In this document: piece by piece, positions 4,876 through 21,050 of the stretch
Layout of the letters: every line of letters starts with the position of its first letter
How positions within the stretch are numbered: the first letter of the stretch is position 1
Notes under the pieces: generated by a model
Databases searched by the model: none
Seen by the model: only the letters and a program-made list of their open reading frames with translations
Told to the model about the DNA's origin: nothing
Translations under genes and position numbers: made by a program
Source: Nitrospinales bacterium
GTDB lineage: Bacteria > Nitrospinota_A > UBA7883 > JACRGQ01
Reading direction: 5' to 3'
DNA length: 64,000 bases
NCBI GenBank assembly: GCA_023248495.1
Contig: JAHFEK010000007.1
Location: 4,770 to 68,769, forward strand

Positions 4876-6882
4876 ATGAAGGTACTTTTCAGCTCTTGGC
4901 AGGATGTTATCGTCGATAACCGCGGCAAGCCGCGCGACGCATGGGACGATGCCAAGGTAAAACTTCCCGAAACATACGATGGCGCGCGGAAAATGACCGC
5001 ATTCATGGGCTGGGGCGGCGTTGTCATCCTGGACGAGCCGTTCGATATTGTGGAAATGGCCGCCAATTACGTCAAAGCGCTCCAGAAGAGCTCCTGCGCC
5101 AAGTGTTTCCCCTGCCGGGTCGGCACGAAAGTAATGGAAGATATTTTTGCCCGCATCGTTGCTGGAAAGGGAACGGCGGGAGATCTCGCCCAGCTTGAAG
5201 GGCTATGCGAAACCATTTCACGCAATTCCAAGTGCGGCATCGGCCAACTGGGACCAGGCCCCATCGTAGATTCCTTCAAATACTTTAAGAAGGAATATCA
5301 AGAGTACGTTCTTGGCAAGAAGAGGGGGCCGGGCTATTTCTATCCGAATAAGACTACCGCTCCCTGCACGGCGGCCTGCCCCACCGGCATGGATATTCCT
5401 CTTTATATAGAGCAAATTAAGGAGGGGGATTTCGCCGGATCGCTGGCCACCATCCGCACGGCCAGCCCGATGGCGTGCTCGCTGGGCCGCGCCTGCTTCC
5501 ACCCTTGCGAAAATAACTGCCGCCGTGAAAATGTGGAGCGGTCGCTGGCGATCTGCAAGCTTAAGCGTTTCGCCTGGGATTACGAAGATCTGCACGCGGT
5601 CGACAAGCCGGGCAATCCGAACCGGCACACCCGGCCTGAAAAGGCGGCCGTGATAGGCGCGGGTCCTTCGGGCCTTTCCGCCGCGTATTATCTGCTGTTG
5701 CAGGGCTTTCATGTCACCATATTTGAAAAGTTGCCGACGCCCGGCGGCGCGGCGTGGACCGGCATCCCGCATTACCGCATCCCGAAGGATGTCATGATGC
5801 GCGAGGTTAAATATATTGAAGACCTCGGCGGCGAGATCAAATACAACGTCCATTTCGGCAAGGATGAAACCTTTGCCTCGCTCCGCGCCAAGGGTTTTAA
5901 GGCTTTTTTTGTCGCCACCGGCGGCGATCTTTCCAAGGCGATGGGCGTGGAGGGGGAGGACAAGAACTATCAGGGGGTTTACGGCGGTATCGCCGCCCTC
6001 AAGGAAATAGTCGATTTCACCATCAAGGATGCCGTCCCGAATGCGTCCGCTAAAATTCCCACGCTGGCCAAGCCGAAAAAGGTGTTGGTGGTTGGCGGCG
6101 GCAACACGGCGATGGACTGCGTGCGGAGCTGGATCCGCCTCGGTTGCAAGGATGTGAATATCGTTTATCGCCGCACCAAAAAGGAACTGCCGGCCGATCC
6201 GCACGAAGTGCACGAGTCTGAAGACGAAGGGGTAAACTACTGTTTTATGCTGGCCCCCACCAAGCTGGTGGCGGACGGCAGCGGCAAGGTTGTCGGCCTC
6301 GAATGCCAGAAGATGGAAATGGGTCCTCCGGACGAATCGGGCCGCCGCAAGCCGGTGCCGGTGCCGGGTTCCGAACATCTGGTCGAGGGGGATATGGTCA
6401 TCTCCGCGATTGGGCAGGACTGCGACATTTTCTTCCTCAAGGAAGTGCCGGACGTGAAAACCACAAAGTGGAAGACGATCATCACCAATGAAGAGACTTT
6501 TCAGACCGCCGTGCCGGACATCTTTGCCGGCGGAGATGTGGTATCGGGACCGCTGAATTTGGTGACGGCCGTCGGCCATGCACGCCGTGCGGCCCAGAGC
6601 ATGGGGCAGTTTCTGCGGGGTGAAACCGTTGGCATTAGCGACGAACAGCGGATGGAGAAGGTTATCGCCACTATTGGCGTGTACGACAAAAACGAAAAAG
6701 TGCCGATGCCGGGCGGTTGGCCGCGGCAGGAAATGCCGATCTGCGACCGGCAGGATAAAATCGGTTCCTTTAAAGAAGTGGAATTGGGTTACTCGCTGGA
6801 GGCGGCGGTTGATGAGGCCGGCCGCTGCATGCGTTGTTATGTGGTAGGTATGGCATGCGTGCCGGAGGGAGCGTCCAAATGA
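4876..6882 (+). CDS. sfrB: SfrB-like NAD(P)H oxidoreductase beta subunit (NuoF-type 4Fe-4S domain + GltD-like FAD/FeS domain)
   Basis: N-terminus MKVLFSSW..IVDNR and AFMGWGG resemble Geobacter SfrB as I recall it; SCAKCFPCRVG..KC cluster; CTAACP/CFHPCENNCRR; GAGPSG and GGGNTAMD dinucleotide motifs; terminal RCMRC. Confidence 0.85.
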   Translation: MKVLFSSWQDVIVDNRGKPRDAWDDAKVKLPETYDGARKMTAFMGWGGVVILDEPFDIVEMAANYVKALQKSSCAKCFPCRVGTKVMEDIFARIVAGKGTAGDLAQLEGLCETISRNSKCGIGQLGPGPIVDSFKYFKKEYQEYVLGKKRGPGYFYPNKTTAPCTAACPTGMDIPLYIEQIKEGDFAGSLATIRTASPMACSLGRACFHPCENNCRRENVERSLAICKLKRFAWDYEDLHAVDKPGNPNRHTRPEKAAVIGAGPSGLSAAYYLLLQGFHVTIFEKLPTPGGAAWTGIPHYRIPKDVMMREVKYIEDLGGEIKYNVHFGKDETFASLRAKGFKAFFVATGGDLSKAMGVEGEDKNYQGVYGGIAALKEIVDFTIKDAVPNASAKIPTLAKPKKVLVVGGGNTAMDCVRSWIRLGCKDVNIVYRRTKKELPADPHEVHESEDEGVNYCFMLAPTKLVADGSGKVVGLECQKMEMGPPDESGRRKPVPVPGSEHLVEGDMVISAIGQDCDIFFLKEVPDVKTTKWKTIITNEETFQTAVPDIFAGGDVVSGPLNLVTAVGHARRAAQSMGQFLRGETVGISDEQRMEKVIATIGVYDKNEKVPMPGGWPRQEMPICDRQDKIGSFKEVELGYSLEAAVDEAGRCMRCYVVGMACVPEGASK

Positions 6883-9455
6883 GCCACGCCGCCGCCGATA
6901 CGAAGACAACCATTACCTTGACCATCGACGGCCAGACCGTCGAGGTGAAAAACGGAACGACCATATTGCAGGCGGCGCGCCGCGTGGGCAAAAAAATACC
7001 GACGCTCTGCTATCTGGAAAAAACCCACCCCATCGGTTCCTGCCGCGTTTGTTCCGTGGAAGTGGCGGGAGTCGACGGCCCGGTGATGAGCTGCAACACG
7101 CCGGCGTCCGATGGCATGGCCATTACCACCGACAGCGAACAGCTGAGGGAATTCCGCCGGAACATGATTCAGTTTATCCTGGTGAACCACCCGCTCGATT
7201 GCCCGGTGTGCGAGCGTTCCGGCGAATGCACATTGCAGAATCTCACATGGCAGATGGGCATCAAAAAGCACGATTGGAGCACCGCGGCCCACGAGAAAAA
7301 ACCGGTGGTCGACTGGGGCCTGATCCGGTACGACCAGAACCTTTGCGTGATGTGCGAACGCTGCGTTCATGTTTGCAACGAGGTGCAGGGAATCAACGCC
7401 TTCCGCGTGGACGGCAATGGCTATGCCGCGAAAATCAATACGCAGGACGGCAAGCCGCTTGATTGCGATTTCTGCGGCCAATGCATTTCAGTGTGCCCGG
7501 TGGGGGCGCTTTCCAGCGGCATGTATTTTTCGGGCCGCTCGTGGGAGATGAAGCGCACCGCCACTATTTGCCCGCATTGCGCCGTCGGTTGCGCGTTTGA
7601 AGTGAACACGAAGAAAGGCAAGATCGTCCGTATCACCAGCAATACCGCGCTGGGAACCAACAAGGGCAACCTCTGCGCCCGGGGCCGTTTTGGGTACGAA
7701 TTCGTGCATCAGGGCGAACGTCTTACCGCGCCGATGATTCGCCGGGGTCACGGCTTTGAGACCACCGATTGGGATACGGCGATTGCCTATGTCGCCGAGA
7801 AGCTGAACGGATACCGCGCGGCGGGGAAAAACGCCTTCGCCGGCATCGGCAGCGAACGCGCAACCAACGAAGACAACTATCTGTTCCAGAAGTTTTTCCG
7901 CAGCGCTCTTGGCTCCGGCAATATCGACAACATGGCCAACATGGCCGGTCATGATACCGCGGGCGGCCTCTTCGAGGCGTTTGGCGATTTCCCGATGACC
8001 ATATCCTTTGACGAATTGAAACAGGGCAATCTTTTCGTGTTTATCGGGCTTGATGGCAGCAATGAAAATCCGGTAGTGAGCAACCACATCCGCGAAGCAA
8101 TCCACGGGCATGGCGCCGAAGTGGCGCTGGCCTACAGCAAAGAGGCGTTCTTTCTGCCGTCACCCCGCATGAAGCTGACCTACGGCTATGCCGAACTGCA
8201 CGAATTCGTCGTGACGCTGGCGGGGGAACTGGCGGCCGCCATCAAGTCCGGCGGCGGCATTCCCGGCGGGACGGTAATCGCGGGGGATTTTGAAAAGCGC
8301 CTGGAGGCCGAACTTGGCGGCGCGCGGGCCAAGCTGGATGGCGCGTTGAACGCGCAGGCCGCCCAGCTTGCGGCCCTTATCAAGAAGAAGCAAAAGCCGG
8401 TGTTTCTCATCGGGCAGGAGGCTCAGCGCCATCCGCGGGCCAGCGCCATCGTGCGGAATATCGTAAACCTCGCCAAGATCGCCGGCGGCAAGGTAATGGT
8501 GATGCGCGAATATTGCAACTCGCGGGGGGTTAACGATATGGGCGTGGCCCCGAACGTCCTTCCCGGATACGTAAAGGAGACGCGGCAGGAGTTGAGGGCA
8601 TTCGACGACCTCTGCACTCTTATCAACAATCATGAGACCAAGGCGCTAATTATCACCGACGAGGATGTGTTGCGCCGTCACGCCGATTTTGTCAAATTCC
8701 GCGAGGCGATGGACAAGGTGGAATTCGCCGTGGTGGTGGATCAATTCTACTCGCTGACCGCCATGGCGGCCGATGTGGTGTTGCCGTCGTGCACCTCTTT
8801 CGCGAAGGAAGGCACGTTTACCAATATTGAAGGACGCATCCAGAAAATCAACCCTGCCATCGAACCGGTGGGTAATAGCCGGACGGTGTGGCGGATTTTT
8901 GCCGACATCGCCAAGGCGATGGGGCACGATTTCGGCTATCGCTCCACCGCGGACGTTCAAGCGGAAATTGCCGCCAAGGTGCCGGGATACGGGGCGATTA
9001 TCGATGGCGGCATGGCCGATTACTCCGGACTCATCAACGGTTCGCCGGCGCTTACATGGGTGGAACCGGCTTCGATGAAAAAGCCGGCCCCCGGCGAGCT
9101 GGTGTTGTTGCCCGAACACAACCTCTTCGTGATGGGCATTTACACCGATTATTGCCCATCGCTCCGCCATTTGGTCGGGAAGCATTACGCCGATTTCCAT
9201 GTGGAAGGCAAGCCGTACGTCGATATCAATCCCGCCGATGCGCAGGCACTGGGCCTCAACGCCGAGGATACGGTTCTTTTCAAATCGCCGAAGCGGGAGT
9301 GGAAAGGGCGCGTCCGCATGAGCGGCGCGGTGAAGCCGGGCTCCGTGCGCATTCCCGATGAAATGGATCAGTCGCCATCCGTTATAATGACGGCGGGCGG
9401 CCGCGAGATACAATGCCACAATCTGTTGGGGCTGATGGGGAAGGAAAAATGCTAA
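6879..9455 (+). CDS. sfrA: SfrA/NuoG-like FeS subunit (2Fe-2S, 4Fe-4S, molybdopterin-fold domain without a Mo ligand)
   Basis: CY..GSCRVC..SC, HPLDCPVCERSGEC, CVMCERCVHVC, CDFCGQCISVCP, CPHCAVGC..C; start set at the ATGA overlap with sfrB (GGAGG upstream). Confidence 0.8.
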   Translation: MSHAAADTKTTITLTIDGQTVEVKNGTTILQAARRVGKKIPTLCYLEKTHPIGSCRVCSVEVAGVDGPVMSCNTPASDGMAITTDSEQLREFRRNMIQFILVNHPLDCPVCERSGECTLQNLTWQMGIKKHDWSTAAHEKKPVVDWGLIRYDQNLCVMCERCVHVCNEVQGINAFRVDGNGYAAKINTQDGKPLDCDFCGQCISVCPVGALSSGMYFSGRSWEMKRTATICPHCAVGCAFEVNTKKGKIVRITSNTALGTNKGNLCARGRFGYEFVHQGERLTAPMIRRGHGFETTDWDTAIAYVAEKLNGYRAAGKNAFAGIGSERATNEDNYLFQKFFRSALGSGNIDNMANMAGHDTAGGLFEAFGDFPMTISFDELKQGNLFVFIGLDGSNENPVVSNHIREAIHGHGAEVALAYSKEAFFLPSPRMKLTYGYAELHEFVVTLAGELAAAIKSGGGIPGGTVIAGDFEKRLEAELGGARAKLDGALNAQAAQLAALIKKKQKPVFLIGQEAQRHPRASAIVRNIVNLAKIAGGKVMVMREYCNSRGVNDMGVAPNVLPGYVKETRQELRAFDDLCTLINNHETKALIITDEDVLRRHADFVKFREAMDKVEFAVVVDQFYSLTAMAADVVLPSCTSFAKEGTFTNIEGRIQKINPAIEPVGNSRTVWRIFADIAKAMGHDFGYRSTADVQAEIAAKVPGYGAIIDGGMADYSGLINGSPALTWVEPASMKKPAPGELVLLPEHNLFVMGIYTDYCPSLRHLVGKHYADFHVEGKPYVDINPADAQALGLNAEDTVLFKSPKREWKGRVRMSGAVKPGSVRIPDEMDQSPSVIMTAGGREIQCHNLLGLMGKEKC

Positions 9456-9805
9456 ACCAGTACATTCCGATACTCGTGATGACGCTGGCGGCGTGCGGCA
9501 CGGCGGCGGGCATGATAATTCTGACCTCGATCATAGGGCCCAAGAGGGAGTTCGAAGAAAAAATGGAGCCGTTTGAGTGCGGCGTGTCGCCGATCACCGA
9601 CCCGAAAAGCCGTTTCGGCGTCCGGTTCTATCTCGTCGCAATGCTCTTCATCGTGTTCGATATAGAAGCCGTTTTTCTCTTTCCGTGGGCGGCGGTGTTC
9701 CGGGAACTGGGGATGTTCGGCTTTGTTGAAATGATGGTCTTCATCCTGGTGTTGACGGTGGGGCTCGCCTATATTTGGAAGAAGGGGGCTTTGGAATGGG
9801 AGTGA
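9449..9805 (+). CDS. nuoA: NADH-quinone oxidoreductase subunit A
   Basis: PFECG, FYLVAMLFIVFDIEAVFLFPWA, WKKGALEW; start overlaps the sfrA stop. Confidence 0.96.
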   Translation: MLNQYIPILVMTLAACGTAAGMIILTSIIGPKREFEEKMEPFECGVSPITDPKSRFGVRFYLVAMLFIVFDIEAVFLFPWAAVFRELGMFGFVEMMVFILVLTVGLAYIWKKGALEWE

Positions 9806-10332
9806 CAAGGGAAGAACGCAATATCGAGGCCGCGCTGGGCGACAGCGTGATTCTCACCCAGGTTGATAAAGTCATCGGCTGGGGAAGGAAGTACTCGTTC
9901 TTCCTCTATCCGTTCATCACCGCCTGCTGCGGCATGGAATTCATGTCGGTGGCCGGTCCCCGCTACGATCTCGACCGGTTCGGCGCGGCGTTGCCGCGCT
10001 TCTCGCCACGCCAGGCGGATTTGTTGTTTGTGGTCGGCACCATCAGCCACAAACAGGCCCCGATCCTCAACAAAGTGTATAACCAGATGGCGGAGCCGAA
10101 GTGGGTTTTCGCCTTCGGCGCGTGCGTCTGCTCCGGCGGCATGTACAACAATTACTCCACGGTGCAGGGCATCGACACCATTTTGCCGGTGGATGTGTAC
10201 GTGCCGGGTTGCCCGCCCCGCCCCGAAATGGTGTTTGACGGACTTCTCAAACTGCAGGAGCTGGTCGCCAACGAGCGCTCGTCCAAGTGGCCGCGCGGCA
10301 AATCCCAATATGAGCCGAGGGTGAAACGCTGA
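9796..10332 (+). CDS. nuoB: NADH-quinone oxidoreductase subunit B
   Basis: TACCGMEFM, FSPRQADL, GACVCSGG, VPGCPPRPE. Confidence 0.97.
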   Translation: MGVTREERNIEAALGDSVILTQVDKVIGWGRKYSFFLYPFITACCGMEFMSVAGPRYDLDRFGAALPRFSPRQADLLFVVGTISHKQAPILNKVYNQMAEPKWVFAFGACVCSGGMYNNYSTVQGIDTILPVDVYVPGCPPRPEMVFDGLLKLQELVANERSSKWPRGKSQYEPRVKR

Positions 10333-10817
10333 TGGGCCGCTTGATAGATTTGTGCAAGCGGAAACTGGGCGATACCGTGCTGTCCGCGCACGAGCAGCAT
10401 GGCGATGAAACCGTCGTGATCCGCAAAGACGCGTTGCTCACCGTGCTGCGTTGGCTGCGCGACGACGATGCCATGAAATTCGATTTCATGATGGATCTGA
10501 CCGCCGTGGATTACCTCGGCACGAGGGCGCGCAGCGAACGGTTTGAAGTGGTGTACCATCTATTTTCGCTGAAGAACAACCACCGTCTCCGCGTCAAGAC
10601 GCTGGTGGCCGACGACGATCCGGTCACCGAATCCGTCGTTACCGTTTGGGTGGCGGCCAACTGGTTCGAGCGCGAGGTGTGGGACATGTACGGCATAATC
10701 TTCAAAGGCCATCCGAACATGAAGCGGATTCTCCTGTACGAGGAATTCGAAGGCCATCCGTTACGCAAGGACTACAACATCCGTAAACGTCAGCCGCTCA
10801 TCGGGCCGGAGAACTGA
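10332..10817 (+). CDS. nuoC: NADH-quinone oxidoreductase subunit C
   Basis: DLTAVDY, FEVVYHL, ANWFEREVWDMYGI, GHPLRKDY. Confidence 0.96.
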   Translation: MGRLIDLCKRKLGDTVLSAHEQHGDETVVIRKDALLTVLRWLRDDDAMKFDFMMDLTAVDYLGTRARSERFEVVYHLFSLKNNHRLRVKTLVADDDPVTESVVTVWVAANWFEREVWDMYGIIFKGHPNMKRILLYEEFEGHPLRKDYNIRKRQPLIGPEN

Positions 10818-10821
10818 AGCG

Positions 10822-12021
10822 ATGGAAAATAGACACCAGCTGGACTTAAATACGGAACTGATGGTTCTGAACATGGGGCCGTCGCATCCGGCGACCCACG
10901 GCACCGTCCGGTTTTTCATTAAGCTTGACGGCGAAAAAATCATCCATATGGAAACGGAAATCGGCTACCTCCACCGCGCATTCGAAAAGCATTGCGAAGA
11001 CGGCACGTGGAGCAAAGCGTTCCCCTATACCGACCGGCTGAACTATAACAGCGCCCCCCAAAACAACGTCGCCTATGCGTTGGCGGTGGAAAAGCTGATG
11101 GGTATGGCGGACAAGGTTCCCGCCCGCACCGTTTACATCCGAACCATCATGTGCGAACTGTCGCGGATGGCCGATCACTACACCAACCTTGGCGCGGCCA
11201 CCCTTGAATTGGGCGCGCTGACGGCATTTCTCTATTTCGTCGAAGCGCGCGAACTGACATGGGATCTTATCGAGTCGGTTTGTGGCGCGCGCCTCACTTC
11301 GAATTATGTACGTATCGGCGGGCTTGCTTCCGACCTGCCGGAAGGTTTCGCGGGAAAGGTGAAAGAAGTTTTTGCCAAGAACCGCGTGTTTTGGGATGAA
11401 TTTGACAAGTTGCTGACGAAAAATCGCATTTTCCTCGATCGTATGCGCGACACCGGGGCGATTTCGCGCGATGACGCCATCGCCTATGCTTTCACCGGGC
11501 CTTGCCTGCGCGCGGCCGGCGTTGAATACGACGTTCGCAAAGCCTCACCCTACCTTGCTTACGGCAATGTCGATTTCGATATCCCCGTCGGCACCACCGG
11601 CGACAATTTCGACCGGTACCTCGTCCGCATGGAGGAAATCCGGCAAAGCGAGCGGATTATCGAACAGTGCCTCGCCCAGATGCCCTCGGGTCCGATCAAC
11701 ATCAACGATGCGGCGGTGCGCAACCCCAGCAAGGAAGAAGTGAAATCGAACATGGCATCGATGATATTCCACTTCAAAAACACCATCGAGGGAATACAGG
11801 TTCCCAAGGGCGAAGTCTACGTTCCCACCGAGGGATCCAACGGCGAAGTTGGTTTCTACCTCGTTTCGCAAGGCGGCGGCAAGCCGTGGAAGTGCCGTGT
11901 GCGGCCCCCCTGCTTCGCCCTTACGCAGGCGATGGGGCATATGTGCAAAGGATCGTTCTTGGCGGACATCATTCCGACTTTCGACATGATTAACCTTATC
12001 GGCGGGGAGTGTGACCGCTAA
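10822..12021 (+). CDS. nuoD: NADH-quinone oxidoreductase subunit D
   Basis: NMGPSHPATHG, IGYLHRAFEK, DRLNY, RVRPP, GECDR. Confidence 0.96.
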   Translation: MENRHQLDLNTELMVLNMGPSHPATHGTVRFFIKLDGEKIIHMETEIGYLHRAFEKHCEDGTWSKAFPYTDRLNYNSAPQNNVAYALAVEKLMGMADKVPARTVYIRTIMCELSRMADHYTNLGAATLELGALTAFLYFVEARELTWDLIESVCGARLTSNYVRIGGLASDLPEGFAGKVKEVFAKNRVFWDEFDKLLTKNRIFLDRMRDTGAISRDDAIAYAFTGPCLRAAGVEYDVRKASPYLAYGNVDFDIPVGTTGDNFDRYLVRMEEIRQSERIIEQCLAQMPSGPININDAAVRNPSKEEVKSNMASMIFHFKNTIEGIQVPKGEVYVPTEGSNGEVGFYLVSQGGGKPWKCRVRPPCFALTQAMGHMCKGSFLADIIPTFDMINLIGGECDR

Positions 12022-13133
12022 TGTTTGATTACACCTATTTGCCGGCGCCGAATCTCATCCCCTCCATCGTGGAGATGATGCTGAAGATCGTATTTATTTT
12101 CTCGATGAACATGGGGGTCTTCGCCCCGTTGCTCGGCTGGGTGGAGCGAAAGCAGTCGGCCCTCATGCAGGACCGCATCGGCGCGAACCGGGCCGAGATT
12201 TTCGGCTTCACGGTGTTCGGTCTTCTGCACACGGTTACGGACGCGATCAAGCTTCTCACGAAGGAGGATTTCATTCCGCGCGGCGCCGACAGGCCGTTGC
12301 ACTACCTGGCGCCGTTTATCGCGGTGGTGCCGTCGCTTGTCGCATTTGCGGTCATACCCTTTGGCGGCAAGTACATGCTCTGGGGGCATGAAGTGAATCT
12401 GGTTATCGCCGACCTCAATGTTGGCATGTTGTATGTTTTCGCGGTGGCTTCGCTGGCTACCTATGGCGCGGTGATTGCCGGCTGGGCTTCGAATAACAGT
12501 TGGTCAATGCTGGGCAGTATGCGCGTGGGCGCGCAGATGCTTTCGTATGAAGTGGCGATGGGCCTTACCCTCGTCGGCATTTTTATGGTGTACGGCAGCT
12601 TGCAGTTGACCACCATCGGCATGGCCCAGGAAAACTTCTTCCACTGGGGCATTTTCCTCCAGCCGCTCGGCTTCATACTGTTTATCGCCTGCGCTTTGGC
12701 GGAAAACAAGCGCACGCCGTTTGATATGCCGGAAGCGGAGTCTGAACTCATCGCCGGGTATTTCACCGAATACTCCGGGCTTAAGTTCGCCATGTTTTGG
12801 ATGGCGGAATTCCTGGAAATGGTGACTATCGCCGCGGTGCTGGTGGCGCTTTTCTTCGGCGGCTGGCACATCCCGTTCATCACTCACCAAGGGCTTATCG
12901 CCGCGATGGGTTACCTGTTCGGCGCCAACTTCGGGGCGATAGCGGCCATGATTATTCATGTCGCCGTGTTTTGGCTGAAGGTCGTCGTATGGATCATGAT
13001 TCTTATGCTCATCCGCTGGTCGTTGCCGCGTTTCCGGTTCGACCAAGTGATGAAGCTTGGCTGGAAAATCGTCCTGCCGCTGGCGCTGGCGAATATTTTT
13101 ATAACGGGCCTCGTTCTTTTGGCGGTGCGGTAA
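12021..13133 (+). CDS. nuoH: NADH-quinone oxidoreductase subunit H
   Basis: ERK..ALMQDRIG, DAIKLLTKE, SYEV, RTPFDMPEAESEL, LPRFRFDQ. Confidence 0.97.
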   Translation: MFDYTYLPAPNLIPSIVEMMLKIVFIFSMNMGVFAPLLGWVERKQSALMQDRIGANRAEIFGFTVFGLLHTVTDAIKLLTKEDFIPRGADRPLHYLAPFIAVVPSLVAFAVIPFGGKYMLWGHEVNLVIADLNVGMLYVFAVASLATYGAVIAGWASNNSWSMLGSMRVGAQMLSYEVAMGLTLVGIFMVYGSLQLTTIGMAQENFFHWGIFLQPLGFILFIACALAENKRTPFDMPEAESELIAGYFTEYSGLKFAMFWMAEFLEMVTIAAVLVALFFGGWHIPFITHQGLIAAMGYLFGANFGAIAAMIIHVAVFWLKVVVWIMILMLIRWSLPRFRFDQVMKLGWKIVLPLALANIFITGLVLLAVR

Positions 13134-13708
13134 TGGTGGCGAATTATAAAAAGGTTAACCGGGGCGTGACGCTCACCTTTTGGGAGCGGATATATGTGAT
13201 GGAAGTGATGCGCGGCATCATCATTACCGGGCGCCACTTTATCCGGAACTGGGTTTCCACCATCCGGTCGTATGTCAGCGGCAATCCCGCCGATCGCGGC
13301 ATCCCGACCATCTATTACCCGGAGGAAAAGCCGCTGCTGCCGGAAGCGTACCGTGGCCGCCCCATGCTGGTGCGCGCCGTCGATGGCAAGGAAAAGTGCG
13401 TGGCATGCGGGCTGTGCGAAGTGGCCTGCCCGCCCAAGTGCATCACTATTGTGGGCGCTATGCGGCCGGATGGCACGCGGTATCCCGAAACGTATACGCT
13501 TGACGGGGCGGTCTGCATTTTCTGCGGGCTGTGCGAAGAGGCCTGTCCGGAAGAAGCGATTGTGATGAGCCCCAACTATGAAGGGCTGGCGGAATATGAC
13601 CGCGGCCTGATGCTCTACGACAAAGAAGCGCTGCTCGTGCCCGAAGAGAAACTCCAAGGACGGCTGGATTACATTCGGCGGAGGATGTTCAACAAATGCA
13701 ACTACTGA
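13133..13708 (+). CDS. nuoI: NADH-quinone oxidoreductase subunit I
   Basis: YPEEK, CVACGLCEVACP and CIFCGLCEEACP; start at the TAATG overlap. Confidence 0.95.
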   Translation: MVANYKKVNRGVTLTFWERIYVMEVMRGIIITGRHFIRNWVSTIRSYVSGNPADRGIPTIYYPEEKPLLPEAYRGRPMLVRAVDGKEKCVACGLCEVACPPKCITIVGAMRPDGTRYPETYTLDGAVCIFCGLCEEACPEEAIVMSPNYEGLAEYDRGLMLYDKEALLVPEEKLQGRLDYIRRRMFNKCNY

Positions 13709-14193
13709 TTTTTTACGGGTTCGGCTTCTTTGCCCTGTTTTCGGGCATTGCGATGATTATGTCGCGCCAGCCGGTTACGTCCGCGCTTCTCATGGTGGTC
13801 AACATGTTCTGCCTGGCGGGCCTGTACGCGCAGCTCGGCGCGCACCTTATCGCCGTGCTGCAGGTGATGGTTTACGCCGGCGCCATCATGGTGTTGGTGC
13901 TTTTCGTCATCATGTTCCTGAACCTGCGCGAGAAGGCGGGCATTGTTTCGAAACACGGGGTGATGATGCAGGCGTTGGGTATCGCGGCGCTCGGCTTTGT
14001 CATCACCGCCATAATCGCGAAACTTGATATGGCGAAACTCCCCGCCGCCAAAGCGCCCGCCGCCGATTTCGGATCGGTCGCGGCGATTGGCCGTGTGTTG
14101 TTCACCGATTATCTGCTGCCGTTTGAAATAACCTCGGTTCTCCTGCTCGCGGCGATCGTGGGCGCGGTGGTTCTGGCAAAGAGGAAGGTCTGA
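13696..14193 (+). CDS. nuoJ: NADH-quinone oxidoreductase subunit J
   Basis: [31 protein letters not shown]. Confidence 0.96.
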
Positions 14194-14195
14194 CC

Positions 14196-14507
14196 ATGGA
14201 AATGCCCGTACCGTTACACCATTACCTGATCCTCTCCGGCATCCTGTTTTCCGTCGGGGTGGTTGGGGTTCTCTCCCGCCGCAACGCGATTATCATTTAC
14301 ATGTGCATTGAATTGATGCTGAACGCCGTCAATCTGACGCTGATCGCATTCTCGCGCCAGTTGGGCGATCTCAACGGGCAGTTGTTTACGTTCATGGTTA
14401 TGGCAGTGGCCGCCGCCGAGGCGGCCGTCGGCTTGGGGATCATAATTGCATTGTTCAGGAACCGCCAGTCCGTGGATGTGGACGACGTGAACCTGCTGAA
14501 AGGATGA
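14196..14507 (+). CDS. nuoK: NADH-quinone oxidoreductase subunit K
   Basis: [27 protein letters not shown]. Confidence 0.96.
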
Positions 14508-15976
14508 TGACGTTGAAAACGATAGTGTCAATAGTTCCTTTATTGGCAATTCTGGTTTCATTGCTGGCCGCATTCGGTATTTTCTTCCTGCGGAATTTAC
14601 CGAACTGGAGGGAAGGTTGCAGCATTTTGGCGGCATTGGTGAAATTTGGTTTGGTGATGTCGTTGTATCCCTTGATTAGGGATGGCTACACGATTGAGTG
14701 TCCCATTGTGGCGTTTCCGGCCGGCATTCTGCCCAATTTGTCGTTTGCCCTTCGAGTTGATGCTTTGGGATTTTTATTTGCCGGTGTCGCATCGTTCCTT
14801 TGGATTTTGACGACTCTGTACTCTATCGGCTACATGCGCACGTTGAAGGAACATGCCCAGGCCCGGTACTACGTTTGTTTTGCTCTTGCCCTCACGGGGG
14901 CTTTGGGCGTCGCCTTTTCGGCGAATTTGCTGACCTTGTTCTTGTTTTACGAGTTGATCACCGTTTCGACGTATTTATTGGTCGTTCATGAAGAAACGAC
15001 GGAAGCATATAGCGCCGGTACCAAGTACCTGACCTATTTGATGGGAACGGGCAAGCTGTTTTTCCTTCCGGCCATTATTTTTACGTATGGTTTGACGGGA
15101 ACGCTGGATTTTAAATCGGCCGGGATCTTTTCGGGCGTTAGCCCGTTTTGGGTGGGTTTGACCCTTATATTATTCGTGGTCGGCGTTGCCAAGGCCGGTC
15201 TCATGCCGTTCCATAATTGGTTGCCTTCGGCGATGGTGGCCCCTACCCCGGTTAGCGCGCTGTTGCACGCCGTGGCGGTTGTGAAAGCCGGCGTATTTAC
15301 CATCGTCAGAATTGTTGTGCATATTTACGGAGTTGATTTCTTAAGCACGATGGGTCTTGGCGCCTGGATGGCGCTGTTCGCTTCCATAACCGTGGTCGGC
15401 GCGTCGATTATCGCCTTGCGGCAGGACAACTTGAAGATGCGATTGGCCTATTCGACGATTTCCCAGCTATCGTATGTGGTATTGGGGGTCATGCTGTTAA
15501 GTCCCGACGGTGTCAGGGGAAGCATTCTGCAGATTGTGGCCCATGCATTTGGAAAGATCACGTTGTTTTTTTGCGCCGGGGCGATTTACGTTGGCATTCA
15601 TAAAAAGTACATAAGCGAGATGGCCGGTATTGGAAAAACGATGCCATGGACCATGGGGGCGTTTACCGTGGGCGCCTTCAGCATGATAGGGGTTCCCCCA
15701 TTGGCGGGTTTTGCCGTGAAATGGAGGCTGCTGTTGGGAGCGATGGAGGCGCATCAAATCCTGATTGTGGGGGTTTTGCTGGGAAGCACGCTGTTGAACG
15801 CGGCTTATTTCCTGCCCATTTTAAAGACGGCATATTTTGATGAATCCGCCGATGCGGCCCATCAACATGAAGCCCCCTTGATAATGAGGGTCGCCTTGAT
15901 TTCAACCGCGATAGGAACCTGTTTGGTCGGGTTGTATTCGGATTTCTTTGTAAGCTTGCTGAAGGGAATAGCGTAA
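14504..15976 (+). CDS. MrpD-family proton/cation antiporter-like subunit (extra subunit)
   Basis: About 14 TM helices; [65 protein letters not shown]; lower GC than flanking nuo genes. Confidence 0.85.
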
Positions 15977-16003
15977 CGTGGAATGCGCGGGACGGGGGAT
16001 AAA

Positions 16004-16255
16004 ATGAAGCCGGACAAACTGATTTTATCGGTGCTGGAAATGCTTAAAAAGCGGGGCATGAAATTGTTTTATATCAGCCTCGCCGCGTTGGTCGCCGTGG
16101 ACGTGTTCGTCCCGAAGACGGAACCCGAGTTTACGGGGCACACGTGGGTTGGTTTTTACGCATTTTATGGTTTCATATCATGCGTTCTGATCATTGTCAT
16201 ATCAAAGGCGCTGGGAAAATTGTTCTTGTTCAAGAAAGAAGATTTTTATGATTGA
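16004..16255 (+). CDS. Small two-TM protein of the Mrp-like module
   Basis: Two hydrophobic segments; GFYAFYGFISCV and terminal EDFYD; overlaps the next gene. Confidence 0.75.
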   Translation: MKPDKLILSVLEMLKKRGMKLFYISLAALVAVDVFVPKTEPEFTGHTWVGFYAFYGFISCVLIIVISKALGKLFLFKKEDFYD

Positions 16256-18005
16256 TTGCCTTAGTCCCGCCTGGGTTTATTTGTTGGGAGCCCTTGGCTT
16301 GCCCTTGGTGCGGAAGTATCGCGCGGCGTATCTTCTAAGCATTCCCGTTGTGGCGGGCTTGGTGTGGTTCCTGTTGCCCTTCGGGAACCATCATATGTAT
16401 GAATTCATGGGTCAGCATATTGTTATGACCCGGGTCGATAAGCTAAGCCGGCTGTTTGGGCTGGTCTTTGTAATCGCGTCCTTTTGTGGCGTTGTTTATG
16501 GCTTGCATGAAAAGGAACGGACGGGCCTCTGGATGGGGGCGTTTTTTTATGTCGGCGGCGCCATGAGTGTCGTCTTTGCCGGGGATTTGATAACCCTTTT
16601 CATTTTTTCCGAGGTTATGGCATTCTCATCCCTCCTGTTGATCAGCTTCGAGAAGACGAATAGCGCGCTTAGCGCCGGTTTCCGTTATATTCTCGTGCAT
16701 ATATTCTCCGGCGTTTGCATGGTGGGCGGCATTGCGATACACGCGAGCCAAACGGGAAACGTGGCCTTTAACGGGCTGGGGGTCTCGGACTTGGGCGGTC
16801 AATTGGTATTGATCGGCTTTTTGGTGAATGCGGCGGTTCCCCCGCTGTCGGCGTGGCTTTCCGACGCCTATCCCGAAGCAACGATCGTCGGAGCCGTATT
16901 CTGTTCCGCTTTCACCACAAAAACCGCCGTTTACTGCCTGATGCGCGGATATGCCGGCACCGACATCCTGATCTGGATGGGCGTTATCATGGCTCTTTAT
17001 GGCGTTGTTTACGCAGTTTTGGAAAACGACATTCGCCGCCTCTTGTCGTACCACATCATCAGCCAAGTGGGTTACATGGTCGCCGGCGTGGGAATGGGCA
17101 CCGAAATGGCGCTCAACGGATCGGGCGCCCATGCGTTCACCCACATTTTGTACAAGGGTTTGTTGTTCATGGGAACCGGCGCGGTCATCCATGTTACCGG
17201 CAAGAGGAAGCTGACCGAACTGGGCGGGGTTTATAAATTCATGCCCATAACAATGACGCTGTACATGATCGGCGGATTTTCGATCTCCGCGTTCCCCTTG
17301 TTCAGCGGTTTTGTCAGCAAGTCGATGGTCGTGGCCGCGGCCGAGCACGCGCATTTGCTGCCCGTCTATCTGCTGCTGACCTTGGCCTCCGCCGGTACGT
17401 TCCTGCATACCGGGTTAAAGCTCCCCTTCTACACGTTCTTCTATCAAGACTGGCGCGGCGAGCATTTGAAGGAAGCTCCCACCAACATGCTGGTTGCGAT
17501 GGCCATCATGTCGGCGTTTTGCATCGGCATCGGTATGTTCCCGCAGCCCCTGTATTCGTTGCTGCCCCACCCGGTTCATTTTGAGCCGTACTCCGCCTGG
17601 CACGTCGTCAGCTCCCTTCAGGTGTTGATGTTTACGGGGCTTGGATTTTATGTATTGCTGAAAATGCTCACCCCGGATGTTGGCGTCAGCATGGACACCG
17701 AATGGTTTTACCGCAAGGGAGGCTATTTTATCGGCCGTCAAGTCACTTCGGGGATTGTGTATTTGGATTCATTGACGAATAACTTTTACCTGCGCGGCTT
17801 TACCGCGGTTAAGTGGATTTCCAAAATGAGCCATTGGGTGGATGCCAACATCGTCGACAAGGTCGTAAACGATGTGGCAAAGTTCTTTATGGCGCTGAGC
17901 GAATATGCCCGGCGTATGCAGCCCGGTTTGGTGCGCAGCTACGCCTTTACCATGGCGCTTGCGTTTGTTCTGTTGGCCGGTTACTACCTGTGGGGGGGTA
18001 AATAA
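16248..18005 (+). CDS. Antiporter-like subunit in the NuoL position (Mrp D2-type body, NuoL-like C-terminal tail)
   Basis: NAAVPPLSAWLSDAYPEAT, FTTKTAVY, LLSYHIISQVGYM, HILYKGLLFM; tail IVDKVVNDVA..RRMQPGLVRSYAFTM looks like NuoL. Confidence 0.8.
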   Translation: MIDCLSPAWVYLLGALGLPLVRKYRAAYLLSIPVVAGLVWFLLPFGNHHMYEFMGQHIVMTRVDKLSRLFGLVFVIASFCGVVYGLHEKERTGLWMGAFFYVGGAMSVVFAGDLITLFIFSEVMAFSSLLLISFEKTNSALSAGFRYILVHIFSGVCMVGGIAIHASQTGNVAFNGLGVSDLGGQLVLIGFLVNAAVPPLSAWLSDAYPEATIVGAVFCSAFTTKTAVYCLMRGYAGTDILIWMGVIMALYGVVYAVLENDIRRLLSYHIISQVGYMVAGVGMGTEMALNGSGAHAFTHILYKGLLFMGTGAVIHVTGKRKLTELGGVYKFMPITMTLYMIGGFSISAFPLFSGFVSKSMVVAAAEHAHLLPVYLLLTLASAGTFLHTGLKLPFYTFFYQDWRGEHLKEAPTNMLVAMAIMSAFCIGIGMFPQPLYSLLPHPVHFEPYSAWHVVSSLQVLMFTGLGFYVLLKMLTPDVGVSMDTEWFYRKGGYFIGRQVTSGIVYLDSLTNNFYLRGFTAVKWISKMSHWVDANIVDKVVNDVAKFFMALSEYARRMQPGLVRSYAFTMALAFVLLAGYYLWGGK

Positions 18006-18007
18006 GC

Positions 18008-19555
18008 ATGTTCCCCATTCTTAGCGCCGTAATTCTGATACCGCTTATCGGGGCCTTAACCCTTCTCTTCGTGCCGAAGAAAAGCGAGAACCTTATCCGC
18101 GGCATCACCCTTCTAACGGCGATTATCGATTTCGCGGTGTCGTTGCCGCTGTATTGCGACTTCAAAGAGGGAACCGCCGCAATGCAGTTCGCCGAGCGGA
18201 TTCCGTGGATACCCTCGTGGGGCGCGGAGTACTCGCTGGGACTGGATGGCATCTCGCTGTTTATGGTGCTGTTGACCACCTTTAGCTGCGTCGTTGTCTA
18301 TCTCGCCACCTGGACCGCGGTGGAAAAACACGTCAAGGAATTTAACATCGCCCTGCTCGTCCTGCAGGCGGCGATGGTGGGCGTGTTCTGCGCGCTGGAT
18401 TTTGTGCTTTTCTATGTTTTCTGGGAGCTGATGCTGATCCCGATGTATTTGCTCATCGGAATTTGGGGCGGGCAGCGGAGAATTTACGCCACCGTTAAAT
18501 TCTTCATTTATACGATGGGCGGATCCGTGCTGATGCTGTTCGCGATTCTGGTGCTTTACTTCCAGTATCACGCGGCGACCGGAATCTATACGTTCGACAT
18601 CCTCAAATATCACTCGTTCGCGATGGACAAAACCCTCCAATTTTGGCTGTTCCTTTGCTTCTTCATCGCCTTCGCGATAAAGGTGCCGATCTGGCCGTTC
18701 CACACCTGGTTGCCGGACGCTCACGTCGAGGCGCCCACCGCCGGTTCCGTGATCCTCGCCGGCATCCTGCTGAAAATGGGCACGTATGGTTTCCTGCGGT
18801 TTTCACTTCCTATATTCCCCGACGCATCCGTATCCGCGGCGTGGTGGGTAAGCGCAGTCGCCATCATAGGAATAATTTTTGGCGCGTTTATGGCCCTGGC
18901 GCAAGACGACATGAAGAAACTGGTGGCGTATTCCTCCGTAAGCCACCTGGGATTCGTTGTGCTTGGCACGTTCGCGTTCACGCTGCGGGGTATTTCGGGC
19001 GGGATCATGCAGATGATAAACCACGGAATATCAACCGGCGCATTGTTCCTCATCGTCGGCATTTTGTACGAAAGGCGGCATACGCGCCTGATAGCCGAAT
19101 ACGGCGGCATCGCGAAAGTGATGCCAAAATTCGCCTTTATTTTCATCATAGTCGCGCTTTCTTCGATGGGAATGCCGCTCACTAACGGGTTCATAGGGGA
19201 AGTGATGATTTTAATCGGCGTGTTCGAAGCCAACTCGGTGTACGCGGCGCTTGCGGTGGTCGGCGTTCTGCTGGGAGCGGCATACATGCTCTGGTTGTTC
19301 CGCCGCGTGATGTTCGGCGATTTGACCAACGAGAAGAACAAAACGCTGCCGGATTTGTCCGCGCGCGAGCTGACCTACATGGCGCCGCTGATTGTAATGA
19401 TATTTTTGCTTGGGGTTTACCCCAATCCGGTGATTCGAAAAATGGACGCCACTGTGGCCAACTTGGTTGCCACCATGGAAAAGGCAAAAGTGGCGCGGCT
19501 GGCGCATCCCGCGGCCCTCGCCGCCAACTTGGATATGGATAAGAAGAGGGACTAA
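18008..19555 (+). CDS. nuoM: NADH-quinone oxidoreductase subunit M
   Basis: LGLDGISL, FYVFWELMLIPMY, FAIKVPIWPFHTWLPDAHVEAPTAGS, AYSSVSHLG. Confidence 0.97.
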   Translation: MFPILSAVILIPLIGALTLLFVPKKSENLIRGITLLTAIIDFAVSLPLYCDFKEGTAAMQFAERIPWIPSWGAEYSLGLDGISLFMVLLTTFSCVVVYLATWTAVEKHVKEFNIALLVLQAAMVGVFCALDFVLFYVFWELMLIPMYLLIGIWGGQRRIYATVKFFIYTMGGSVLMLFAILVLYFQYHAATGIYTFDILKYHSFAMDKTLQFWLFLCFFIAFAIKVPIWPFHTWLPDAHVEAPTAGSVILAGILLKMGTYGFLRFSLPIFPDASVSAAWWVSAVAIIGIIFGAFMALAQDDMKKLVAYSSVSHLGFVVLGTFAFTLRGISGGIMQMINHGISTGALFLIVGILYERRHTRLIAEYGGIAKVMPKFAFIFIIVALSSMGMPLTNGFIGEVMILIGVFEANSVYAALAVVGVLLGAAYMLWLFRRVMFGDLTNEKNKTLPDLSARELTYMAPLIVMIFLLGVYPNPVIRKMDATVANLVATMEKAKVARLAHPAALAANLDMDKKRD

Positions 19556-21006
19556 TGGTTATTGTGCCGCCTTCCATTGATTTGGCCGCCGTCGGGCCCG
19601 AACTGATTTTGACCGGCGTGGCATCGCTGTTGTTGCTTGTAGGCGCGTTCTTTAAAGAACAGAGCCGCGCCCTGAATCCGTGGATCGCCCTCACCGGGGT
19701 CATCTTCGCCGCCGGTTGCGCGTCCGGCCCCCTGTTCCCGCACTCGACGTTTCAGGGTATGTACTCGGCGGATCTGTTTGCCCAGTTCTTTAAGCTGCTG
19801 TTCCTGCTGGGCACCGCCATGACCATCCTTATTTCCATCAAGTACACCGTCGACGAGCAGATCGAGCACGCCGAATACTATGCGCTGTTGCTGTTCGCCA
19901 CCGTCGGCATGATGCTGATGGCGGCCGCATCGGATTTGGTCACGGTGTTCCTCGGCATTGAGTTGCTTTCCATTTCACTCTATGTCCTTGCGGGGTACAC
20001 CCGCACGCGGCTTGTTTCAAACGAAGCCTCTCTGAAGTATTTCCTGCTGGGCGGCTTTGCCACGGGCTTCCTGCTGTATGGCATGGCGCTTATCTATGGT
20101 TGCACCGGCCATACCAACTTGGCCAAGATTGCCTACGCGGTTTCGCACGGCAGCCTTAACACGGGCCTGCTCACCATCGGCGCGTTGCTCTTGCTGGTGG
20201 GGCTGGGTTTCAAGGTCGCGGCCGCGCCTTTCCACCAGTGGACGCCGGACGTGTATCAGGGCGCGCCTATTCCGGTGACGGCGTTCATGTCCGCCGGGCC
20301 GAAAGCCGCCGTGCTGGCGGTGATGATCCGGATGTTCGAGCAGTCGATTGCGTTCATGAATGTCGACTGGATTGTCTGGATCGCCGTGTTGGCGGTGCTC
20401 ACCATGACGGTGGGCAACATCGCCGCGCTGGTGCAGACCGACGCTAAACGGATGCTCGCCTTTTCGTCGATTTCCCACGCGGGCTACGCGATGGTCGGCA
20501 TGGCCGCCGCCAGCCGCGAAGGCTCAAGCGCGGTGCTCTATTACATGCTGGTGTACACGTTCATGAACATCGGCGCGTTCGGCATTCTGGCTCTTGTTGC
20601 GCGGCAAAACGAACAGCGGACCGCCATGCGCGACTTCACGGGATTTGCCTACAAGAATCCCGGTCTGGCGTTTGTAATGACCATCCTCGTCTTCTCGCTG
20701 GCCGGCATCCCGCCGATGGCGGGTTTCATGGCGAAGTTCTACATCTTCATGTCCGCCATCAAGGCGGGGCAGAATTTCCTGGTTATCGCGGCGGTGCTGA
20801 ATTCCGCCATCGGCATCTACTACTATCTCCGCTTCGCCATCTACATGTACATGAAGGAAGAGGCGGGGCCGAGCACCTTGCCGCCGTTACGCGCCTCGCT
20901 GGGGCTCATCCTCGCGCTGGTGATATCGCTCTACGGCGTCATCCGCCTTGGTATCCTTCCGGCGGAATACCTCGATTTCGCCGGCAAGGCGCTCCTCTCG
21001 TTCTAA
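19555..21006 (+). CDS. nuoN: NADH-quinone oxidoreductase subunit N
   Basis: EASLKYFLLG, FKVAAAPFHQWTPDVYQGAP, KRMLAFSSISHAGY, AGIPPMAGFMAKF. Confidence 0.97.
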   Translation: MVIVPPSIDLAAVGPELILTGVASLLLLVGAFFKEQSRALNPWIALTGVIFAAGCASGPLFPHSTFQGMYSADLFAQFFKLLFLLGTAMTILISIKYTVDEQIEHAEYYALLLFATVGMMLMAAASDLVTVFLGIELLSISLYVLAGYTRTRLVSNEASLKYFLLGGFATGFLLYGMALIYGCTGHTNLAKIAYAVSHGSLNTGLLTIGALLLLVGLGFKVAAAPFHQWTPDVYQGAPIPVTAFMSAGPKAAVLAVMIRMFEQSIAFMNVDWIVWIAVLAVLTMTVGNIAALVQTDAKRMLAFSSISHAGYAMVGMAAASREGSSAVLYYMLVYTFMNIGAFGILALVARQNEQRTAMRDFTGFAYKNPGLAFVMTILVFSLAGIPPMAGFMAKFYIFMSAIKAGQNFLVIAAVLNSAIGIYYYLRFAIYMYMKEEAGPSTLPPLRASLGLILALVISLYGVIRLGILPAEYLDFAGKALLSF

Positions 21007-21021
21007 AATTGGCGTTCATTC

Positions 21022-21050
21022 AAAGGCCGGGTTAAACCCCGGCCTTTTTT
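21022..21050. terminator. Bidirectional intrinsic terminator between nuoN and ruvA
   Basis: AAAGGCCGGG-loop-CCCGGCCTTTTTT between convergent genes. Confidence 0.85.

Follow-up and report, generated by a model that had tools for sequence, protein, structure and literature searches.

In the "green" type of respiratory complex I, two MrpD-like subunits stand in place of NuoL (Degli Esposti & Martinez Romero 2016, FEMS Microbiol Ecol 92:fiw084, as reported in PMC9040806 and PMC7415380), and both are treated in the literature as ion-pumping (PMC9040806). Here we describe an arm of this type in a Nitrospinales bacterium (GCA_023248495.1, contig JAHFEK010000007.1). The whole stretch of DNA analysed, termed the window, measures 64,000 nt, and all coordinates are window positions on the + strand. 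Between nuoK and nuoM, as a preliminary description of the locus had placed them, lie genes for a 490-amino-acid (aa) antiporter-like protein (D1), an 83-aa protein (sm) and a 585-aa antiporter-like protein (L′). We consider it probable that a Burkholderiales-like D1-sm-L′ cassette replaced the resident nuoL and so created a four-module green-type arm with D1 as the distal subunit. Judged by the two MrpD-like subunits in the nuoL slot and the insert-free lateral helix on the second of them, the membrane arm is of the known green type and not a new architecture. The preliminary description had named membership of a complex I clade already described as an outcome that would refute it, and the locus does belong to such a clade; its statement that four-module variants duplicate NuoM was incomplete, because replacement of NuoL by two MrpD-like subunits had been published as green complex I. 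What is new here is the host lineage and an unusually clear recombination junction.

Rhizobial green complex I also carries two MrpD-like subunits in the nuoK-nuoM gap, the second with a C-terminal lateral helix; in Rhizobium, Mesorhizobium and Ensifer loci a small gene separates the two. The rhizobial D1 and L′ are ~50-54% identical to those of the window and orthologous in the tree. In contrast to the window, which is colinear from A to N, rhizobial operons are rearranged (J-K-D1-sm-L′-M-N, then A/B-C-D, NuoF, G), have a normal NuoF and coexist with a standard Nuo14. The window shows neither this rearranged order nor a standard NuoE/NuoF input module for NADH with flavin mononucleotide (FMN), but has a fusion of the NuoF C-terminal part with a GltD-type protein (NuoF-C/GltD), no nuoE and apparently no other complex I. 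Furthermore, its L′ ends in the sixteenth transmembrane helix (TM16) of the host lineage, unlike that of rhizobial green complex I.

Complex_I_3 of Ca. Manganitrophaceae was interpreted as a resident operon whose NuoL had given way to MrpD subunits of a green complex I, and a use in reverse electron transport was proposed for it (Yu, Chadwick, Lingappa & Leadbetter 2022, PMC9040806); both the kind of replacement and the proposed use resemble those considered here. These authors locate the lateral helix (HL) on MrpD2 and describe a 26-aa HL insert accompanying a second NuoM (PMC9040806). Complex_I_3 has two NuoM (five modules) and this insert; in the window NuoM is single and the insert is missing. 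The 2M complex I of Nitrospira and others likewise features a fourth antiporter-like module, for which 5 H+ per 2 electrons and reverse electron transport were proposed (Chadwick et al. 2018, ISME J 12:2668, as presented in citing papers, drawn from PMC9040806, PMC7415380 and PMC7419157). According to the citing papers, the extra module there is a second NuoM under a lengthened NuoL helix; neither a second nuoM nor the ~26-aa helix insertion occurs in the window, where instead NuoL is replaced and the extra module would lie beyond a helix of normal length. Stand-alone Mbh-type Mrp clusters share the D1-sm-L′ order directly after MrpC, the NuoK homologue, with bodies 47-59% identical, but they lack a redox module, differ in the L′ tail and in some cases duplicate the sm-L′ pair. 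Within Nitrospinota, NUO-2 of Nitrospina gracilis is, by its description, alike in being a complex I with a NuoF devoid of the FMN site and with extra Fe-S clusters (Luecker et al. 2013, PMC3578206); its genes are scattered, and no replacement in the L slot is described (PMC3578206). Within the literature searched, the pairing of a Nitrospina-type name with MrpD and complex I was found only in the papers on Manganitrophaceae and on haloalkalitolerant Nitrospira.

Borders of the D1-sm-L′ block

The block and the genes that flank it are arranged as follows.

14196-14507, +, nuoK (Pfam Oxidored_q2; NCBIfam NuoK; start codon checked)
14504-15976, +, D1, 490 aa (PF00361 and PF00662), putative imported cassette
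16004-16255, +, sm, 83 aa (alignment of a conserved family), putative imported cassette
16248-18005, +, L′, 585 aa (NF009310), overlapping sm by 8 nt
16248-17915, +, putative cassette-derived part of L′, residues 1 to ~556: 14-TM core, TM15 and lateral helix
17916-18005, +, putative native part of L′, last 30 codons (RMQPGLVRSY plus TM16 AFTMALAFVLLAGYYLWGGK), by DNA homology with resident-type nuoL
18008-19555, +, nuoM, native (TIGR01972, 626 bits)

The ATG of D1 overlaps the nuoK stop codon as ATGA (4 nt), and an alternative start of sm at 15983 would yield 90 aa. The earlier statement that the slot holds no ordinary nuoL stands: the NuoL model TIGR01974, which marks canonical complex I (Nuo14/Nuo11), scores D1 at 189 bits and L′ at 142 bits against a cut-off of 407, and matches no gene above this cut-off anywhere in the 88%-complete genome assembly of 2.57 Mb.

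An orthologous operon in a related Nitrospinota genome (G004, locus L095) has the identical gene order, including the fusion gene, and a 644-aa canonical NuoL in the slot; every other subunit is 59-86% identical in aa sequence to its window counterpart. DNA homology between the two loci (blastn) stops at 14507, the nuoK stop, and restarts at 17919, 87-90 nt before the L′ stop, from where it continues into nuoM in a single alignment. These data bear out the proposal that the block entered behind nuoK. Identical breakpoints set G003, a genome of the green type, apart from its congener G004. At the 3′ end of L′, the final 90 nt match nuoL of G004 and of a further genome (G012) at 73%, as against 54-58% for other L′ genes; across Nitrospinota nuoL the identity is 73-80%, and to L′ genes of other phyla 51-58%. 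Over this segment, Nitrospinota L′ genes are no more similar to one another than to Nitrospinota nuoL. In the 60 nt immediately 5′ of it, identity to nuoL falls to 55%. At the protein level, the last 30 aa of L′ are 77% identical to G004 NuoL.

Because the restart of homology coincides with the hinge in the AlphaFold2 model of L′, we place the 3′ crossover at this hinge. As judged from these alignments, the remnant of the native nuoL in L′ is the hinge and TM16 only, and the ~72-residue helix came with the cassette. The preliminary description was thus right that L′ is chimeric, the body falling in an Mrp-derived clade while the final 30 codons are native nuoL. Its suggestion that the native NuoL clamp was retained holds for the hinge and TM16, but not for the amphipathic helix, which is of the NuoL type in every green complex I examined. 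A recent local joining of a generic Mrp D2 body to a whole NuoL clamp was rejected, given that all L′ proteins in nuo context have a NuoL-type helix and that native sequence is confined to the last 30 codons. Convergence, in which TM16 would have become co-adapted to its native partners without recombination, is hardly credible. Although TM16 touches native subunits, so that selection on the segment is plausible, the likeness is one of DNA, 73-80% over the last 90 nt, runs on into nuoM and drops sharply to 55% upstream. A chimera with a native tail was also sought in one metagenome-assembled genome (MAG) of Manganitrophaceae, where no clear similarity was seen, so that a native tail was not taken as a general feature of green L′.

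Origin and anatomy of D1, sm and L′

In a tree of 113 antiporter-like proteins, with support from the Shimodaira-Hasegawa-like approximate likelihood ratio test (SH-aLRT), all L′ form one clade (100%) apart from Nitrospinota NuoL, in agreement with the expectation that L′ would not group with standard NuoL. All D1, including orthologues from Mrp context, form a separate clade (100%). Nitrospinota D1 and L′ group with the Burkholderiales versions (99-100%), whereas NuoM and NuoN group with those of the canonical-nuoL operon of G004 (100%). The D1 and L′ proteins of nuo operons are nested among members from Mrp context. Some of the 80 closest loci are stand-alone Mbh-type Mrp clusters with the D1-sm-L′ triad at their end, as in locus L067 (MrpE-F-G-MbhD/E-MnhB-MrpC-Dx-D1-sm-L′). 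Sequence comparison thus supports an ultimate derivation of the block from Mbh-type Mrp clusters, in which it follows MrpC.

Base composition points to a foreign origin as well. In 500-nt windows, GC is 0.47-0.53 across 14500-16500 and 0.55-0.60 in the flanks; a dip from ~14520, given earlier as ~42-50% against ~60%, is therefore real but milder than claimed. D1 has a GC of 0.505 and a GC at third codon positions (GC3) of 0.625, and sm a GC of 0.444, while the flanking nuo genes have GC3 values of 0.70-0.82. The lower GC3 of D1, sm and L′ is common to the Nitrospinota relatives and is not seen in other phyla. Taken together, tree groupings, breakpoints and GC3 support the graft in this narrower form.

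The gene order K-D1-sm-L′-M-N recurs in >40 loci from many phyla (homologue neighbourhoods), among them Nitrospinota, Nitrospirota, Burkholderiales, Desulfobacterota, Rhizobiales (Rhizobium/Mesorhizobium/Ensifer), Rhodobacterales, Marinimicrobia, Acidobacteriota and Planctomycetota. Canonical NuoL is present in 26/33 Nitrospinota genomes; in the same 33, clear D1 plus L′ patterns occur only in three genera of the window's family (g1, g3 and g5), matches below cut-off elsewhere being left out. Two loci carry still other antiporter sets. In GCA_040960315.1 (L005, 8216-16580), five antiporter-like genes encode D1, L′, two NuoM and NuoN, the L′ having a helix insert of 25-26 aa, and a gene for a cyclic-nucleotide (cNMP)-binding protein lies between nuoG and nuoH. 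A locus of an uncultured bacterium (L076) has two extra D-type antiporter-like open reading frames (ORFs) 3′ of nuoN, with a GC of 0.48-0.52 against 0.36-0.42 in the rest of the locus.

L′ matches NF009310 (PRK12668, "Na+/H+ antiporter subunit D") over its full length with 682.1 bits (cut-off 564; residues 19-595 of the 603-aa ORF against profile positions 3-580 of 584), and at least 8000 homologues of equal length are found in the database. Its putative cassette-derived part shows 50-90% identity with other L′ proteins, compared with 10-40% with NuoL of Nitrospinota. All motifs quoted in the preliminary description are present in the translation (SAWLSDAYPEAT, SYHIISQVGYM, DTEWFYRK and IVDKVVNDVA...RRMQPGLVRSYAFTM). 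The AlphaFold2 model, whose nearest folds are MrpA, NuoL and NdhF, comprises TM15 (450-474), the lateral helix (485-556), the hinge (557-561) and TM16 (562-583). An L′ devoid of TM15, as the alignment had suggested, is ruled out by this model.

The lateral helix measures ~72 residues, and its counterpart in G004 NuoL is longer by 8-11. In alignments, relatives with a second NuoM show a 25-26-aa insert in this helix, which is missing from the window L′ when aligned with P0116 and P0081. All tails examined from nuo context have a NuoL-type helix with the motif D..VDG.VNG...RR.QTG....YA, and their profile matches NdhF and NuoL entries of the PDB at HL and TM16 (E ~1e-9). In contrast, tails from Mrp context lack the D..VN motif and gave no NuoL-helix match in profile searches. 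By these comparisons, L′ is, at the family level, an Mrp-type body with a NuoL-type clamp. In a Nitrospirota MAG (L084, 9001-11298), a 765-aa L′-type gene has an MrpA-like C-terminal membrane extension in place of the NuoL-type tail. L′ retains the invariant Glu of TM5 and the Lys of TM8 and TM12. Residue 194, at the position of the TM7 Lys, is Asn, as it is in all L′ family members from both nuo and Mrp contexts.

D1 has a NuoL/MrpA-type N-domain (PF00662) and no lateral helix. It scores 629 bits with NCBIfam NF006236 (cut-off 663), and its top PDB matches are MbsH and MbhH, followed by NuoL. Its key residues are complete (TM5 Glu, TM7 Lys, TM8 His and Lys, TM12 Lys), and a NuoL-like motif is present.

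The small protein sm ends in KKEDFYD and belongs to a family with the ending (K/R)EDYYD, which is conserved in bacteria and archaea (alignment of 33 members). The AlphaFold2 model, with a predicted local distance difference test score (pLDDT) of 78.5, consists of two helices (3-35 and 51-75). No match to sm was found in Pfam, NCBIfam or PDB, and a homology to MbhI, MrpB or any solved chain was discarded after comparison of sequence, profile and fold. Genes of this family always lie immediately 5′ of an L′-type gene and are co-duplicated with it in some clusters; from this gene arrangement we take sm to be a partner of L′. Seeming sm-L′ fusions at some loci proved to be artefacts of ORF extension and the overlap filter. 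Mrp-like clusters of Desulfobacteraceae (L039, L048, L051, L053, L061 and L064) show tandem doubling, Dx-D1-sm-L′-sm-L′, so that each would provide two subunits with C-terminal tail extensions.

The remaining operon and the genome

The block is part of a single, tightly packed 15-gene complex I operon (4876-21006), colinear in the order fusion-G-A-B-C-D-H-I-J-K-D1-sm-L′-M-N. Its other features are listed below.

4876-6882, +, 668-aa fusion, first gene of the operon (Pfam PF10589, PF14691 and PF07992; NCBIfam PRK12814/PRK12771-like)
6879-9455, +, nuoG (TIGR01973, 437 bits, slightly under the cut-off of 470; Pfam Fer2_4, NADH-G_4Fe-4S_3 and Molybdopterin)
9449-9805, +, nuoA (ORF and start codon; Pfam-matched orthologues in L001 and L004)
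9796-10332, +, nuoB (same evidence as nuoA)
10332-10817, +, nuoC (same evidence as nuoA)
10822-12021, +, nuoD (same evidence as nuoA)
12021-13133, +, nuoH (start codon checked)
13133-13708, +, nuoI (start codon checked)
13696-14193, +, nuoJ (Pfam Oxidored_q3; NCBIfam NuoJ; start codon checked)
19555-21006, +, nuoN, native (TIGR01770, 456 bits)
21022-21047, +, terminator-like hairpin at the operon end (10-bp stem with 7 GC pairs, then a T run)

The fusion protein combines the C-terminal [4Fe-4S] domain of NuoF with a GltD-type 2x[4Fe-4S] domain and a domain for flavin adenine dinucleotide (FAD) and NAD(P)H. By Pfam analysis it has no FMN domain (PF01512), and the operon no nuoE. Its counterpart at the head of the canonical-nuoL operon of G004 shares 72% identity with it, and nuoA to nuoD are 64-86% identical to those of that operon. 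A NuoF-C/GltD fusion heads this operon and also that of an unrelated contig (L004). Two genes with PF01512 (Complex1_51K, NuoF-type) lie outside the nuo operon (C62:73899-74324 and C74:53742-54260; L099 and L100).

The Proton_antipo_M domain (PF00361) occurs in D1, L′, M and N, and nuoM is a single copy (one TIGR01972 gene). The whole assembly holds only five PF00361 genes: besides the four of the nuo operon there is one on a different contig, in an Ech-like cluster. This Ech/group-4-hydrogenase-like cluster (L086, 4390-9737; contig C24 of assembly G000) encodes a NuoH-like protein, a 218-aa ORF, a 489-aa antiporter-like protein, a NuoC/D-type fusion (549 aa) and a NuoI/B-type fusion (275 aa). 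Mrp (CPA3) antiporters are characterized by the small subunits MrpB, MrpE, MrpF and MrpG alongside MrpA/D; neither MrpE (PF01899) nor MnhB (PF04039) was found in the genome, whereas control genomes gave matches. On gene content, the nuo operon appears to encode the sole complex I of this organism.

Assembly, function and significance

The genes found, their homologies, the two breakpoints, the length of the lateral helix and the residues conserved are observations, from which we infer how the arm may be assembled, where D1 lies, and with which stoichiometry and in which direction the enzyme may run. A cassette from a Burkholderiales-like green complex I would have recombined into the resident Nitrospinota operon by allelic replacement, with one crossover at the nuoK/nuoL boundary and the other at the hinge between lateral helix and TM16. 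L′ would thereby keep the resident TM16 anchor, which docks on native partners. As its helix is of normal length and its TM16 is the host's own, L′ would occupy the position of NuoL, and since the helix is no longer than that of NuoL, it would span only NuoM and NuoN. D1 would then remain outside the helix. Its probable place is the distal end of the arm, past L′, with L′ and sm likely holding it there. Electrons would enter via the FAD/NAD(P)H GltD-like fusion in place of NuoE/F. A fourth module could lift the ratio of complex I to 5 ions per 2 electrons. The four antiporter-type modules of the window may reach this value, and in a possible reverse operation pmf-driven electron flow from quinol to NAD(P)+ would gain leverage from the additional module.

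Several observations weigh against this proposal. With the assembly 88% complete, the genome might yet hold a second complex I. The TM7 Asn of L′, where all canonical pumps have Lys, indicates that L′ may not be a full pump, and renders the value of 5 ions per 2 electrons uncertain. Finally, G003 (green) and G004 (canonical) are mutual nearest relatives in all flanking genes (75-85% nt identity). Either the cassette spread among relatives by homologous recombination, or G004 reverted. A reversed history, with the green cassette ancestral in the clade and the canonical nuoL of G004 regained later through another Nitrospinota allele, would account for this kinship and for the window and G003 having diverged to about the same degree in the cassette (75-80%) as in the flanks. 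We regard it as possible but rather unlikely: the distance of G004 NuoL to its family matches that of its NuoM and there is no sign of a foreign nuoL, and the NuoM tree, which does not fix the placement of G004, also permits a single gain with no reversion. Under either history the cassette is foreign to Nitrospinota.

With respect to function, the four modules might bring no extra pumping: D1 would be the real distal pump, and L′ would act chiefly as an adapter, providing the lateral helix and passing on the signal. Both together would then stand for one NuoL, and the ratio would stay near 4 H+ per 2 electrons. The TM7 Asn, shared by all nuo- and Mrp-context members, keeps this explanation alive, and the NuoL-like motif, PF00662 N-domain and full Glu/Lys/His-Lys/Lys set of D1 agree with it. 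Nevertheless, L′ retains the invariant TM5 Glu, TM8 Lys and TM12 Lys, and the literature regards both subunits as ion-pumping (PMC9040806), so that we find it doubtful. Ancestry in Mrp-type Na+/H+ antiporters and the unusual Asn could also speak for a cassette that turns the enzyme, wholly or partly, to Na+ translocation; yet solved Mrp complexes assign the Na+ path to a small-subunit domain that is missing here, which makes this improbable. More improbable still is a separate Mrp-like cation/proton antiporter that shares only its transcript with complex I. In its favour, stand-alone Mbh-type Mrp clusters end in D1-sm-L′ too and the NCBI name of L′ is Na+/H+ antiporter subunit D, but the genome has no MrpE, MnhB or another nuoL, L′ bears the NuoL-type lateral helix in nuo operons and lacks it in Mrp context, this helix is longer when a second NuoM is present, and the window L′ retains the resident TM16.

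Returning to replacement of nuoL by the imported block, we lean slightly towards the view that D1-sm-L′ is a portable two-pump cassette, swappable for nuoL by homologous recombination, with sm as the obligatory partner of L′. If so, a 3′ crossover at the hinge between helix and TM16 leaves the incoming arm with the host's membrane anchor, and cassette exchange with a kept TM16 points to TM16 as the part that has to match the native partners. The 83-aa sm would then be an undescribed obligatory partner of L′-type subunits in bacteria and archaea; the locus draws attention to this conserved small subunit, which carries no annotation. The number of ions that complex I moves for each pair of electrons, and the way in which additional antiporter modules are connected, are open questions of bioenergetics. 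The window places a green-type arm in a new phylum, as seemingly the sole complex I of its host, and close Nitrospinota species would differ only in whether their complex I has three or four modules. With nuoL in one and D1-sm-L′ in the other of two orthologous operons, such sister species would form a natural near-isogenic pair for assessing the effect of a fourth module on stoichiometry and reversibility.

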